From: Okamejei kenojei | Taxonomy: Eukaryota | Assembly: GCA_035221665.1 (NCBI GenBank) | Contig: CM069142.1 | Location: forward strand, 58,094,001 to 58,158,000 | Length of the DNA: 64,000 bases | Reading direction: 5' to 3' | Shown: piece after piece, positions 12,880-59,279 of the stretch | Layout of the letters: every line of letters starts with the position of its first letter | Position numbering within the stretch: position 1 is the stretch's first letter | Notes under the pieces: generated by a model | The model's database searches: none | What the model was told of the DNA's origin: nothing | What the model saw: the letters and a program-made list of their open reading frames with translations, nothing else | Position numbers and translations under genes: made by a program

Positions 12880-13445
12880 CCAGTGTTTGTGAGTGTGTGA
12901 GTGAGTGTGTATGTCTGTGAGAGTGTTTGTGTGTTGCTGCGACTGAGTGTGTCGATCTCTGTGTGTGCCTGTGTAAATGTACTTGTGTGTTTATGTCTGT
13001 ATGTGTGTGTGTGTGTGTATAAGAAGGGTTTCGGCCCAAAACGTCGCCTATTTCCTTCGCTCCATAGATGCTGCCGCACCCGCTGAGTTTCTCCAGCATT
13101 TTTGTCTACCTGTGTATATGTGAATGTGTGTATGTGAGTGTATGTGGTTGTAACTGAGTGTGTTTGTGACTGTCTTTGTGTGTGTGCCTATCTGACTGTG
13201 TGTCTGTGTATGTGTGTGTCTGTGTTCTGTGTGTGTCTGTGTTCTGTGTGTGTCTATGTTTGTGTGTGTGTGTTGTGTATGAGAACAGATGTGCCAGTGT
13301 GAGTTAATGTGTGTGTATGTGAGTGTGAATAGTGATGGCGAGTGTGCTTATGACCATGAGTGTATTTCTGAGTGTGTTTGTGTGTGTGCTTGGCTGAGTG
13401 TATGTGTCTGTGTTGGTGTATTTCTGTGTGTATGTGTGAGTGAGA
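12880..13445. repeat. Degenerate (TG)n microsatellite field containing a PLE terminal repeat at 13020-13110
   Basis: Visible TG repeats. Confidence 0.9.
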
Positions 13446-13727
13446 GAGATGAGCTTTGATTTGCTGACTCCTCAGCTGACTGGAGCAACATTACAGGATG
13501 GCTGCTACATGTTTTTTGCTCAACAATTTGGCTGAGATCCACGTCTTGGCCCGGTGTCAACTCAAACCTAACACCTGTCTGAGACAATGAGCAGCTTGTG
13601 TTGGTTGCTTGTGTCATGGGGGTCATATTTGGCAGCTAAAGGAAATGGGGATTCAAAAACAGAATTTTAAGGTAGGTGGCTGTATTAGGTAGACTTTTTA
13701 ATGCTGATTCACGAGTTTAGCATGCAT

Positions 13728-14030
13728 TAGACAATAGACAGTAGACAATAGGTGCAGGAGTAGGCCATTCGGCCCTTTGAGCCAGCACCGCCATTCACTG
13801 TGATCATGGCTGATCATCCACAATCAGTACGCCTTTCCTGCCTTCTCCCCATATCCCTTCACTCCTCTATCTTTAAGAGCTCTATCAAACTCTCTCTTGA
13901 AAGCCTCCAGAGAATTGGCCTCCACCGGCCTCCTGAGGCAGAGAATTCCACAGATTCACAACTCTCTGTGTGAAAAAGTTTTTCCTCATCTCCGTTCTAA
14001 ATGGCTTACCCCTTATTCTTAAACTGTGGC
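13728..14030 (-). mobile_element. CR1 3' end
   Basis: (agacaat)n tail followed by ggtgcaggagtaggccattcggccc. Confidence 0.85.
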
Positions 14031-15249
14031 ATTCTGGCACATGCTAACCTCGAAAGTCATCATGGTAGCTTCTTGGCACCATCTTTGTTAGCACTTTTGT
14101 TCAGTTCCTAATTATTCGGGGCAATCTTTCTCAACCCAAGAAATAAATTATTTGGCCACTCATTTCTGTGGCTAGTAGACTTGCACAAAATGGTCGCCAC
14201 AGCATCTCAGACTCATTCACTGCGTACAGGGTTATGGGGAGAAGGCAGGAGAATGGGGTTAAGAGGGAGAGATAGATCAGTCATGATCGAATGGTGGTGT
14301 AGACTTGATGGGCCAAATGGCCTAATTCTGGTTCTATAACTATGAACCTATGTATGTGGCAGTCCAGGGTGTTTGTGGCAAATGTCTTAAATACAATGTT
14401 TCCTTGACCAGCAAAGTCTTTGGTTATTCTCCTGGGTCGAGGAGAGGGCTGTAGGTGGAAGATTGTGTTTGGAAGAGATGCTGCACCATGGACCTAGCTA
14501 TGATTTGGGTTCAAAGCGATGAAGTCTGCAGAGTAAGGATGGAGAATATATGATTTTTAAGGGAGAGATAAATAGATCCTTGATTAGTATGTGTGTCAGG
14601 AGCTATGGGGAGAAGGCAGGAGAATGTGGTTAGAAGGGAGAGATAGATCAGTCAATGCTGAATGGTGGAGTAGACTTGATGGGCCAAATGGCCTAATTCT
14701 GATCCTACACCTTATGAACCTATGTACATGGCAGTCCGGGTGCTTGTGTTAAACACAAGGTTTCCATGTGGCCTGACCAGCCTACTGCCAAAGACGACCG
14801 CCACCTGAATATGACTCTAATGTCTTCCATTCTAGTCAGGAAACCAGATACGGTTGTGCTTGAGCCCCAAGCAATAGTTTGAGGATGTTGTTGCTGTTAC
14901 TAAATAACCCTTCAGAATTACCACAGTCTATCATTAAAATAGTGGGTGTTGTTAAATTAGCTCTAAAAGAATTTTAACCACAAATTAAGAAAATATATTT
15001 TTTATATTTCCTGGAAACTTTGTCCTGACGAATTACAGGCGCCAGGAGGAGATCACTCTTTCGCCCACACAGATTTTTTAATTGGAGATACTTAACGTTA
15101 GACCATAGCTACTCCCTTGTCTCATACACACACACACCCTGATGCTGGATAGTAGTGACAGGCCTATCAACCGACATGTCCAGGCTTACTGACTGCAGGC
15201 TACTCAGGTTATATACCAGGGTCTCCGAAATCAGGACGTCAGTTTTTTT

Positions 15250-55900: not shown

Positions 55901-58590
55901 CCCCCCCCCCCCCCCCCCCCCTCCCCCCCCCCCACCCCCCTCCCCCTCCCCCCCCCCCTCCCCCCCCACCCCCCCCCCCCCCCCCCCCGCTCCCCCCCCC
56001 CCCCCCCCCCCCCGCCCTCCTCCCCCCCCCCCTCCCCCCCCCCCCACCGCCCCCAACTCCCCCCCCCCCCCCCCCCCCCCCCCTCCCCCCCCCCCCCCCC
56101 CTCCCCCCTCCCCCCCCCCCCCCACCCCCCCCCCCCCCCACCACTCCCTCTCCCCCATCCTGCCTCCACCTCCCGCCCCCCCCCCTGCCTCCGCCCCCCC
56201 CCACCCCCCCCCCCCCCCCCTCCCCCCCCCCCTCCCCCCCCTCCATGCTCCACCCCTCCTCCCCTCCCCCCCCCCCCCCCCCTGTGAGCGCCCCCCCCCT
56301 GGTCACCGGCTCCCCCCACCCGCCCCCCCCCCCCCCCCCTCCTCCCCCCCCCCCCTCCCCCCCCCCCCTCCCCCCCCCCCCCCTCCCCCCCCCCCCCTCC
56401 CCCCTCCCCCCCCCTCCCCCTGCTCCNNNNNNNNNNNNNNNNNNNNNNNNNNNNNNNNNNNNNNNNNNNNNNNNNNNNNNNNNNNNNNNNNNNNNNNNNN
56501 NNNNNNNNNNNNNNNNNNNNNNNNNNNNNNNNNNNNNNNNNNNNNNNNNNNNNNNNNNNNNNNNNNNNNNNNNNNNNNNNNNNNNNNNNNNNNNNCCCTC
56601 CCGCCCCACTCCCCCCCACCCCCCCCCCTGCCCCCCTCCCCCCCCCCCCCCCTCCCCCCGCCCCCCCCCCCCCCCCCCCCTCCCCCCGCCCCCCCCCCCC
56701 CCCCCCCCCTCCCCCCCCCGCACCCCCCCCCCCCCCCATCCCCCCCCTCCTCCCCCCCCCCCCCCCGCCCCCCCCCCCGTCCCCCTCCCATATACGGTCC
56801 CCCCCCCNNNNNNNNNNNNNNNNNNNNNNNNNNNNNNNNNNNNNNNNNNNNNNNNNNNNNNNNNNNNNNNNNNNNNNNNNNNNNNNNNNNNNNNNNNNNN
56901 NNNNNNNNNNNNNNNNNNNNNNNNNNNNNNNNNNNNNNNNNNNNCCCCCCCTCCCCACTCCCGCCCCCACCCCCCCTCACCCCGCCCCCCCCGCCCCCCC
57001 CCCTACCCCCCCCCCCCGCCCCCCACCCCCCACCCCTCCCCCCGTTACGCCGCCCTCCCCGACCTCCCCCCCTCTCCGCCCCCCCCACCCCCTTCCCCCT
57101 CCCCCCTCCCCCCCGCAGACGCTCCCCCCCCGCCCCCCCCCCCCCCGGCCCCCTGCCCCTGGGGGGTGACCCCCCTACCCCCCAGCCACCCCCCCCCACA
57201 CCCTGCCCCGGGCCCCTCCCCCCCCAACCCGACCCCCCCCCCCCCCCTCCCCCGCTGCCGGGCGCCCGCCGGCCCGGCCCTCCACCGGCCGAGCCCCCCC
57301 TCTCATACCTCGCGCCCCCGGCCCCGCCCGCCCCCCCCCCCCCCACCTCCCCCCCCAGCCCCGCCGCCCCCCCCTCCCCTCACCCCCCAGGCCCCCCCCG
57401 CCCCCCCCCCTCCAATAAGAATAGCGCCCCCCCCCCCCCCCCCACCCCCCTAAGCACTTCCCCGCCCACCCCCGTGAGCCAAAAAACCCCCCCCCCCCCC
57501 CCCCCCCCCCCCAGCTCTCCCCCGCCCCCCCGAGGACCCCCTTGCCCCCGCCCCCCCGCCCCTCCAGCCACCCCCCCACCCCGGCCCCCCCACCCCCCCC
57601 CCCCCCCCTCCCCCCCCCCCCCCGCCCCCCACTGCCCCCGGCCCCCCTCCGCCCGTTACCCCCGCCTCCTGAACCTGCCCCCCCCGTGCCCCCTCCCCCT
57701 CCCACGCCGCCCCCCCCCGCTCCCTCCACCACCCAAGCTCCCCCCTCCCCCCGCCCCACCCCCATTCCCACCCCCCCGCCCCGCCCCTCCACCCCACCCC
57801 CCCACCCCCGCACCCCCCCCCCTCCCACCCCCCCCCCCCCCCCCCCCCCCCCCCCCCCCCCCCTACGCCCCCCTCCCCCCCCCCCCCCCCCCCCACCCCC
57901 CCCCCCCCCCCCCCCCCTCCCCCGACTCCCACCCCGGGCTCCCCCCTCCCGGCCCCCCTCCCCCCCGCCCCCACCCCCGCCCGCCCGTCGACCCCACACA
58001 CTGCCCCCCCCCCACCCCACCCCCCCCCCCCCCCCCTCCCCCCCCCCACCCCCCCCCGCCTCCCCCCTCCCCCGCCCCCCCACCCCCCACCCCGCCCCAC
58101 ACGATAGCCCCCCTCCCTCCCGCCCTCCCCGGCCCCCCCCACTCCCCCCCCCTCCCCGCCCGTCCCCCCCCCCCCGGGCCCCGCCCCCATCCACCCCCCC
58201 CCCTCACCACCCCCCCCCCCCCCCCCCCCGCTCCCCACGGCCAGCCCCCGCCCTCCCCTCCCCCGGCCTCCCACCGCCCCCCCCCGCCCCCCCCCCGCCG
58301 CACCCGCCCCCCCCCCCCCCCCCCCCCCCCCGCGCCTCCCAGCCCCAGCCCGCCCCCCCACCACCCCCCCCCCCCCCCCAGCGCCCAACCGCCCCCCCTC
58401 CCGTCCGCCCCCTCCCCCCCCCCCGCCCCCGGCCCCCCCCCTCCTCCCCCCCCGCCCCCCATCCCCCCGCCCCCCCGCGTCCCCCCCCCCCCCCGGCTCC
58501 CCCCCCCCTCCAAGCCCCCCCCCCCCCCCCCCCCCCCCCCTCCCCCCCCATCCCCCCCCTCCCCCCACCCCCCCCCCCCCCCCCCCCCCC
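52929..58590. other. Assembly gaps (N runs) and low-quality poly-C sequence
   Basis: Six N blocks separated by almost pure C. The same 36 bp sequence appears on both sides. Confidence 0.9.
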
Positions 58591-59116
58591 TTCCTTTATT
58601 TCATATGCCCCTCCCTTCCCTGAGCCACTGCTGACCAAAGATCTTAGAGCGGAGCAAGATGGTTCACTCCGCGAAAAAGCCGTAGTAGCTGATGGGTAAT
58701 CTTCAGCGACATTCCCGTAACCGGCTTCTGTCATGGCGGCGTCATCTACAAGCGGAGCGTACTGATCCGCTATAATGGCAGGGTTCTTCGTCATTCCATT
58801 TCGTAAATGCAGCAGTTCCACACTTTAATTCTTTGTTTTAATGTATAAGTGCTCTAACAATAGTAAGAAAGACTGCGGTAATTAAAACTATCGGAATTAC
58901 TTTGGCGGCACCTCTGCGATTCATCTCCTGTACATTCCACCCCCCCTGAATATTTTATCTGGGGTTTTAGACTGAGCTAATCTTGCAGAGGGTTGACGGA
59001 TTTTCCTTGCTAAAGGATTACCTGCGACTTAACAAAACCTCAAATCCTCTGTATGCTGGATCAGACATAACTCAGGGTATTTCTTCGATCTTCATGATGA
59101 TGTACCTTAATGTCAA

Positions 59117-59279
59117 GGATAGACACGAATAGCGGGAGTAACTCAGCGGGTCAGAAGAAGGGTCTCGACCCGAAACGTCGCCTGTTCCTTTTCTCCAGAG
59201 ATGCTCTCTGACCCGCTGAGTTGCTCCAGCTTTTTTTGTCTATCTTCTGTTTAAACCAGCATCTGTAGCTCCTTCCTAC
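59117..59279. mobile_element. Fold-back PLE-terminal short element with 13 bp TSD
   Basis: TSD accttaatgtcaa at 59104-59116 and 59280-59292. Confidence 0.85.

Follow-up and report, generated by a model that had tools for sequence, protein, structure and literature searches.

Minimal hammerhead ribozymes are known from the pseudo-long terminal repeats (pLTRs) of metazoan Penelope-like elements (PLEs); single minimal hammerheads are reported not to cleave, and dimers to cleave at a low level (PMC4209133). For the PLE of an anole, the hammerhead is reported to cleave only with the element protein and to be dispensable for insertion, with no RNA-seq reads ending at the cleavage site (PMC11167929). 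The present analysis concerns a stretch of 64,000 nucleotides of the Okamejei kenojei genome (assembly GCA_035221665.1, contig CM069142.1, positions 58,094,001 to 58,158,000 of the forward strand), referred to here as the window, which contains part of the RUNX1 gene. A prediction made from the sequence alone had placed hammerhead motifs of Penelope-type terminal repeats at 16 places in this window. In our reading, these motifs are short pLTR pieces of a PLE that encodes a reverse transcriptase (RT) and a GIY-YIG domain and carries a minimal hammerhead; at RUNX1 they are mostly mutated, likely inert and predicted not to cut the pre-mRNA. We give this reading a probability of roughly 0.85.

Results

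Origin and abundance of the repeat unit

A lone GIY-YIG fragment of this element's family lies in the window at positions 31833-32007 on the plus strand (Pfam GIY-YIG E 0.0035, below the cut-off); the genome has 58,087 first-look candidates for it. When 30 of these loci were fetched, the hammerhead motif was present on the same strand, 444-513 nt past the GIY-YIG start, in 24. Among another 30 loci, chosen by the 5' end of the open reading frame (ORF), 22 have the motif about 160 nt before the ATG. The window fragment is 82% identical to a long frameshifted copy in locus L125, in which the order is unit, RT, GIY-YIG, unit and inverted unit. Both L125 and a second locus, L130, have RT motifs followed by GIY-YIG, all on a single strand and split by frameshifts; the Pfam matches (RVT_1, E 8e-7; GIY-YIG, E 4e-4) fall slightly below the curated cut-offs. 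Because the motif follows the GIY-YIG domain, precedes the ATG of the ORF and flanks the long copy, the repeat unit is, judged by this sequence context, the pLTR end of an endonuclease-bearing (EN+) PLE. This structure, together with the published marks of the ribozyme, bears out the proposal that the motif is a minimal hammerhead in a Penelope-type terminal repeat. The pLTR marks are present as well, namely partial tandem and inverted 5'-truncated copies and a tail of 30-40 nt, which is optional in the elements described in PMC8557442. The linker ahead of the GIY-YIG domain in L125 and L130 reads C-X4-C-X2-C and fits the CX2-5CxxC criterion of the Neptune clade, which suggests a Neptune-type element; Nematis PLEs also have a CX2-5CxxC linker (PMC8557442).

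Exact matches to the intact core number 79,562 in the genome (39,882 on the plus and 39,680 on the minus strand), and the control gave none. One young subfamily alone accounts for 21,453 identical 51-mers. An unbiased sample of sixty 10-kb loci at fixed coordinates (598.5 kb) contained 239 profile matches (115 plus, 124 minus), which extrapolates to about 1.1 million fragments. A scan of viral contigs gave no match. Our literature search found nothing on hammerhead ribozymes in cartilaginous-fish retrotransposons, searches for skate or Chondrichthyes Penelope returned unrelated papers only, and shark and skate names are absent from the two supplement files of PMC4209133 that were searched.

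Architecture of the hammerhead

The family consensus carries the marks of a PLE minimal hammerhead: the conserved core, an extra base after A9, the G10.1-C11.1 pair and a palindromic 15.2/16.2 pair. The numbering and essentiality of the core bases, C3 and G8 apart, are established knowledge. Hairpin loops require at least 3 nt. Helix II is therefore counted as 4 bp (GGGU paired with ACCC or GCCC) closed by a YUCG tetraloop, and the 5-bp stem with a 2-nt loop that had been proposed cannot form. The usual helix I of 4-5 bp is not seen; at 2 bp the family fits the short-helix variant alone. The first two helix I pairs (U-A or U-G, then G-C) are kept in 29/29 and 28/29 copies that extend upstream, and A.C stands at the third position in 27 of 30 such copies. 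Among the 20 sampled copies that are intact by the hammerhead descriptor given below, helix I is 2 bp in 16 and at least 3 bp in one; it is also 2 bp in the youngest subfamily. A GGT/ACC stem I had been pointed out at 26945 and 31309. GGT does face ACC there (at 26945 and 31310), but both copies have C.C mismatches in helix II (10.2/11.2 and 10.1/11.1, respectively), and a G at -3 is atypical of the family, in which A occupies this position in 88% of 32 sampled copies extending upstream. A few copies read CUGAUGA instead of CUGAAGA (L067 and position 5794 of L125, for example), N7 being U in 5 of 149 sampled copies.

Copies at the RUNX1 locus

The host gene is RUNX1 on the plus strand, as had been proposed, by exon translations and by PDB and Pfam matches. 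The Runt exons precede the window by 17-20 kb, with RUNX1 as the top PDB match (E 1e-37). Inside the window, coding exons are found at approximately 8356-8547 (translation, with AG/GT borders read in the sequence) and 20243-20404 (sequence reading), and the last coding exon, at approximately 27122-27621, carries the RunxI domain (E 3e-47) and the VWRPY-stop end. A candidate poly(A) signal, AATAAA, lies at 29508-29513, about 1.9 kb past the stop codon. In all four sequencing runs compared over 28300-33400, long unique contigs end at 29371-29529, near this AATAAA, and unique stretches beyond have almost no cover. These ends would fit a 3' untranslated region (UTR) that stops before the copies at 31313 and 33221; the runs are not recorded as RNA and have no DNA control, and the observation is not used as evidence.

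A profile hidden Markov model built from 47 copies gave 41 matches in the window, covering all 16 noted places, and none in the controls, which were the reversed window and 60 reversed genome loci. The hammerhead descriptor (CUGANGA, an extra base permitted, a helix II of 3 bp or more, GAAA, a paired 15.2/16.2 and UH), applied to both strands of the window, was passed at two places only, 19703 and 33221. A family copy is thus present at every one of the 16 places, and the motif as it had been written down recurs at two. In the per-copy alignments the other 14 have lost CUG, C3, U4, G12, A14, the core-adjacent helix II pair, the ACGU palindrome or the whole GAAACGUC block. Nor do all the copies lie in sense inside RUNX1 introns: six do (13020, 17535, 18593, 19702, 21250 and 26948), two are intronic and antisense, and eight lie past the stop codon.

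The sole intronic copy with an intact core occupies 19699-19824 on the plus strand. Its core, at 19703-19730, has a 4-bp helix II with a CUCG loop, the ACGU palindrome and a helix I of 2 bp (descriptor, alignment and fold). An inverted partial unit on the minus strand, at 19841-19909, is predicted to pair with its tail, and the fold of 19699-19909 reaches -114 kcal/mol. By profile and alignment, the five other intronic sense copies are broken in different ways. The copy at 13021-13117 is without CUG and has G12 changed, that at 17530-17643 has the GAAACGUC block deleted, and that at 21246-21343 has 15.2 changed, so that the palindrome is lost, and a helix II of 3 bp. The copy at 18593 is the plus member of a head-to-head pair at 18501-18689 with a predicted long hairpin of -95 kcal/mol, and its C3 and G10.1 are changed. 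The descriptor was also run on the copy at 26944-27043, which has a C.C mismatch within helix II and a possible 3-bp helix I. The two antisense intronic copies carry a changed A14 (22464-22556) and a deletion of the block past helix II (23228-23322).

Past the stop codon, the second intact core (33221-33248) belongs to a plus-strand copy at 33217-33316, with one G-U pair in helix II and a 2-bp helix I (descriptor and alignment). Three further single copies on the plus strand are altered: at 31311-31409 the G10.1-C11.1 pair is gone (profile, descriptor and alignment); at 36714-36927, where the unit extends upstream into the 3' region of the element, A14 is changed; and at 40470-40555 C3 is changed. 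On the minus strand, an internal deletion runs through the core at 33605-33724. The remaining three belong to head-to-head pairs, at 32359-32530 (G12 changed in the minus copy), 35853-36035 (G16.2 changed and the palindrome lost in the plus copy, 35916) and 59102-59273 (U4 changed in the plus copy). From 36714-36927 onwards in this account, the assignments come from profile and alignment.

Two further units, both 5'-truncated and without the CUGA core, form a near-perfect head-to-head palindrome at 22732-22910 (Rfam scan, profile and fold). A scan of the whole window with Rfam gave 13 weak matches, none of them to a hammerhead family; weak microRNA-like matches correspond to head-to-head hairpins of PLE units. 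The inverted pairs in RUNX1 introns at 22732-22910, 24426-24599, 18501-18689 and 19699-19909 have predicted double-stranded RNA of 60-90 bp and are candidate editing substrates. Target-site duplications of at least 8 nt were not found around six window copies.

The folding predictions do not favor an active ribozyme at the intronic copies. An ACGU duplex amounts to -1.7 kcal/mol, and a dimeric hammerhead appeared in none of three co-folds. The predicted helix I pairing does not exceed 0.11 for the copy at 19703 and is near 0 in a young copy and in four of the other window copies. Among three relatives it is 0.86-1.0 in one and 0.32-0.68 in another, but near 0 in the third (L167), whose helix I has 6 bp. 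Copies covering the core in the RUNX1 coding span show no strand bias (12 sense, 9 antisense, p 0.66), and same-strand neighbors within 300 nt are not enriched in the genome sample (38 seen, 31 expected).

Covariation across hosts and decay within the genome

A pattern scan of metagenome contigs gave 86 matches in 80 loci. Helix I most often has 4 bp among them (34 matches), followed by 2 bp (25) and 3 bp (15); it has 0-1 bp in 9 matches and 6 bp in 3. The loci (L161-L240) include several unrelated families that share this core and have a covarying helix I of 3-6 bp; these families are probably PLEs of the host animals. For covariation, 22 of the 86 matches, chosen by eye as representatives, were aligned with three copies from the O. 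kenojei genome. Helix II and the core are preset by the search pattern and hence provide no covariation evidence. Helix I pairs 1 and 2 are paired in 24 and 21 of the 25 rows, with nine and eight double changes; none of 500 shuffles reached the covariation score, and controls in which the helix was slid scored lower. Because helix I covaries across the families of other hosts, the motif is by descent a true hammerhead, as far as comparative sequence evidence goes.

Within the O. kenojei genome, no compensatory change was found among the copies, and the 10.1-11.1 pair changes without compensation. At non-CpG positions in 157 sampled copies, the core is conserved at 94.1% (1380/1467) and the tail at 93.2% (3793/4070; p 0.27). 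The CpG-borne G12 and G16.2 are missing from some 30% of copies, a loss at least as frequent as that of other CpG guanines (G12 is kept in 106/148). The core of the dispersed copies decays like neutral DNA.

Ends of the copies

The ends were mapped in a set of young copies (the first 90 of 100 listed, two of them halves of one pair), which is by design blind to ends downstream of C3. The 3' ends lie 88-95 nt past C3 in 53 and 124-132 nt past it in 26, giving two sites about 35 nt apart that correspond to the PLE tail. In 33 of the 90 the 5' end falls 0-4 nt before C3; this rate of 7.3% per nt compares with 0.05-0.29% per nt in the adjoining 280 nt upstream and marks a hot spot of about 25-fold or more over background. 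In the unbiased sample, 125 of 157 copies covering the core have no upstream element sequence. Start positions of the 239 sampled matches are at model positions 1-8 in 138 (31 of which extend upstream), 13-32 in 44, 38-57 in 22, and at the cleavage site, 33-37, in only five. The boundaries therefore lie at the edge of the core and at the two 3' sites, and the cleavage site is not among them. In 12 of the 33 short copies with 0-4 matched nt, the base in front of the match is G, partly from target duplications or inverted partners, so that an extra G derived from a cap is not supported. We found no description of a clustering of 5' ends at the edge of the hammerhead in the literature examined; Repbase/Dfam, Arkhipova 2006 or the bioRxiv supplements may contain one.

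Duplications of at least 8 nt flank 13 of 25 solo short copies, with 0.8 expected by chance; because many have their own target-site duplications, the solo short copies are separate insertions. A head-to-head partner is present for 88 of the 239 sampled matches (11.7 expected), and the halves of one pair can differ in the presence of the tail (L286, for example), which fits independent priming.

Other features of the window

Some 5.7 kb of C-rich, low-complexity sequence, at 52790-58591, directly follows what appears by eye to be the end of a PLE ORF, and is possibly a runaway expansion or mis-assembly of the pyrimidine-rich 3' region of the element. RT fragments of the long interspersed nuclear element (LINE) type, presumably CR1-like, lie on the minus strand at 40652-41758 (the longest; RVT_1 E 2e-15), 38488-39105 and 34976-35293. 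A GC-rich insert at 43800-51361 contains 47/102-nt and 94-nt tandem repeats and 113-nt inverted repeats (48332-48444, 48584-48696 and 51249-51361); its five ORFs had no Pfam match, and it could, as a guess, be a DIRS-like element. Other dispersed repeat families of 150-190 nt occur on both strands (335-524, 1175-1410, 7308-7485, 14553-14727, 23595-23793, 30278-30461 and others) and are probably short interspersed nuclear elements or LINE 3' ends.

Discussion

Several points weigh against the reading that the copies at RUNX1 are inert remnants. RNAfold misses the 6-bp helix I of L167 and cannot model the tertiary fold of a hammerhead. The unit density in the RUNX1 coding span is 8.4 per 10 kb, above the sample mean of 4.0, the sampled loci ranging from 0 to 14. 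The PLE hammerheads of D. virilis also have a 2-bp helix I (PMC4209133), so a helix of this length need not mean a dead ribozyme. The perfect core of the young subfamily (21,453 identical 51-mers) suggests that master elements keep it for some reason, and the cause proposed below for the 5' hot spot is tentative. Across the family the core shows no excess conservation, and adoption of the intronic copies as ribozymes by the host appears unlikely. The long hairpins between inverted copies (18501-18689, 19699-19909 and 22732-22910) would, in the folding models, be a likelier route to any effect on RUNX1 RNA.

Whether the ribozyme of the master element is alive is the sole difference between our reading and one with which it is compatible, namely that the hammerhead still works with the help of protein, only within transcripts of intact elements, as in the anole element Poseidon, and that the dispersed copies are bystanders. 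We regard this as a serious possibility, if somewhat short of even odds. The anole precedent (PMC11167929) favors it, as do the unchanged core, extra A, G10.1-C11.1 pair and palindrome of the youngest subfamily, the two helix I pairs kept in nearly all copies that extend upstream, and the covariation of helix I across hosts. The A.C at the third helix I position argues against it, and so does the fact that insertions do not begin at the cleavage site. Moreover, an RNA that begins 3 nt before the core would, by cleaving, merely lose its cap.

How the hot spot and the short units could arise is more tentative. The element protein would nick the DNA and prime reverse transcription from one or other of two sites within the element RNA, and synthesis would mostly halt some 90-130 nt further on, at the hot spot 0-4 nt before the CUGA core, where an uncleaved RNA would most likely have its 5' end. 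Head-to-head pairs would result if both DNA strands were primed, and any hammerhead cleavage would occur inside the element's own RNA-protein complex. We suggest, with more doubt than confidence, that transcription of the element begins at the AGT lying three bases ahead of the core, leaving room for a helix I of 2 bp only, and that the units of 90-130 nt, hundreds of thousands in number, are run-off cDNAs that were primed at the internal RT start sites in their 5' copy and integrated on their own, like a Penelope version of retroviral strong-stop DNA. If so, the ends of genomic copies would mark both where RT starts and where the RNA begins, and would show that the in vivo template is the uncleaved RNA. 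Head-to-head pairs may instead arise by antisense self-priming, as in the model of Arkhipova 2013 (PMC3846280), but the difference in tail between the halves of the L286 pair fits independent priming.

The hot spot could also be a 3' splice site, with a pyrimidine tract and CAG directly before UCUGAAGA, or a place where RT drops off at a C-rich tract, without any transcription start. Subfamilies that differ upstream nearly all finish in a pyrimidine tract and CAG at this point, and a PLE intron of D. virilis ends at the 5' edge of helix I (PMC4209133). This explanation is a possible but doubtful one: the end of the ORF is joined to the unit in none of 157 sampled and none of 90 young copies, solo copies often retain the AG (G at -2 in 73% of 78), and only some subfamilies show, on visual inspection, a GT donor at the stop codon.

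It is unlikely that the element in this lineage retains the motif chiefly for a core promoter function of the DNA, with an initiator and downstream elements, and that the hammerhead look is a relic. The clustering of 5' ends at (C)AGT before the core would suit a promoter, and TCAGTC, read from the sequence, fits the Drosophila initiator consensus TCA+1GTY, with CGACC at +18 to +22 in the register of the revised motif ten element (MTE), CGANC (PMC5580651); Penelope of D. virilis has an internal promoter with an initiator and a downstream promoter element (DPE) (PMC2377424). These matches are nevertheless short, were found post hoc and are not conserved in other hosts. The DPE fits at 4 of 5 positions and the second part of the MTE does not fit, CGANC is broken by the UUCG-G variant of the O. 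kenojei genome and by the family loops of other hosts, and the ends are spread across 0 to -4 and not confined to a single base.

Finally, the original prediction that sense copies in RUNX1 introns pair through ACGU as dimeric hammerheads and cut the pre-mRNA has very little left in its favor: the full core at 19703, the published low activity of dimers and the tens of thousands of intact cores that exist as possible partners in trans are outweighed by the weak ACGU duplex, the failed co-folds, the low helix I pairing, the lack of strand bias and tandem enrichment, and the single intact copy among the six, where a dimer within the window introns needs at least two, so that the one intact copy of the four named (18593, 19702, 21250 and 26948) is missing its intact partner.

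If intronic cleavage were true, transposon-derived ribozymes would trim host pre-mRNAs genome-wide; the evidence points against this. A hammerhead-like motif in the intron of an important gene is weak evidence when the genome has about 80,000 intact cores. The 5'-end hot spot matters more, for the questions of how PLEs replicate and what their hammerhead does: a family whose near-identical, sharp-ended copies number in the tens of thousands is a ready read-out of RT start and stop sites.

The family resembles the minimal hammerheads of PLE pLTRs (Cervera and de la Peña 2014, PMC4209133) in its CUGANGA...GAAA..UH core, unpaired base after A9, G10.1-C11.1 pair and palindromic helix III, and also in its presence in both terminal repeats, mostly as dispersed single copies, with close pairs on opposite strands. 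It differs in helix II, which is 4 bp here and 7-8 bp in schistosomes, and in helix I, which is 2 bp here and 4-5 bp there (2 in D. virilis). Its 79,562 exact cores are about 10 times the largest copy number given in that source (approximately 9,000, in Xenopus). With Poseidon of Anolis carolinensis (Frangieh et al. 2024, PMC11167929) it shares the hammerhead at the junction of pLTR and ORF, two 3' ends that give the 30-40 nt tail and an apparent template of uncleaved RNA. However, the Poseidon ORF begins at helix II and its RT start sites lie inside the ORF, whereas the O. kenojei element has its ATG about 160 nt past the core, both 3' ends before the ATG and a Cys-rich linker of the Neptune/Nematis type.

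Non-LTR retrozymes (Cervera and de la Peña 2020, PMC7229834; Li et al., bioRxiv 10.64898/2026.07.22.740005) likewise carry PLE-related type I hammerheads in short, high-copy vertebrate repeats. In contrast to their head-to-tail tandem arrays of canonical, active hammerheads, the units here are solo or head-to-head; the window contains no head-to-tail array and the sample no tandem excess, and identity with non-LTR retrozymes is rejected on these grounds. As in the ultraconserved intronic hammerheads of amniotes and the hammerhead of the Clec2 3' UTR (PMC6765202), the core lies within the transcript of a host gene, but those motifs are few, conserved and adopted by the host, whereas the copies here decay neutrally and belong to a family that numbers in the hundreds of thousands. 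The repeat thus belongs to the EN+ PLEs with a minimal pLTR hammerhead, a class already known, to which it adds one family of very high copy number.

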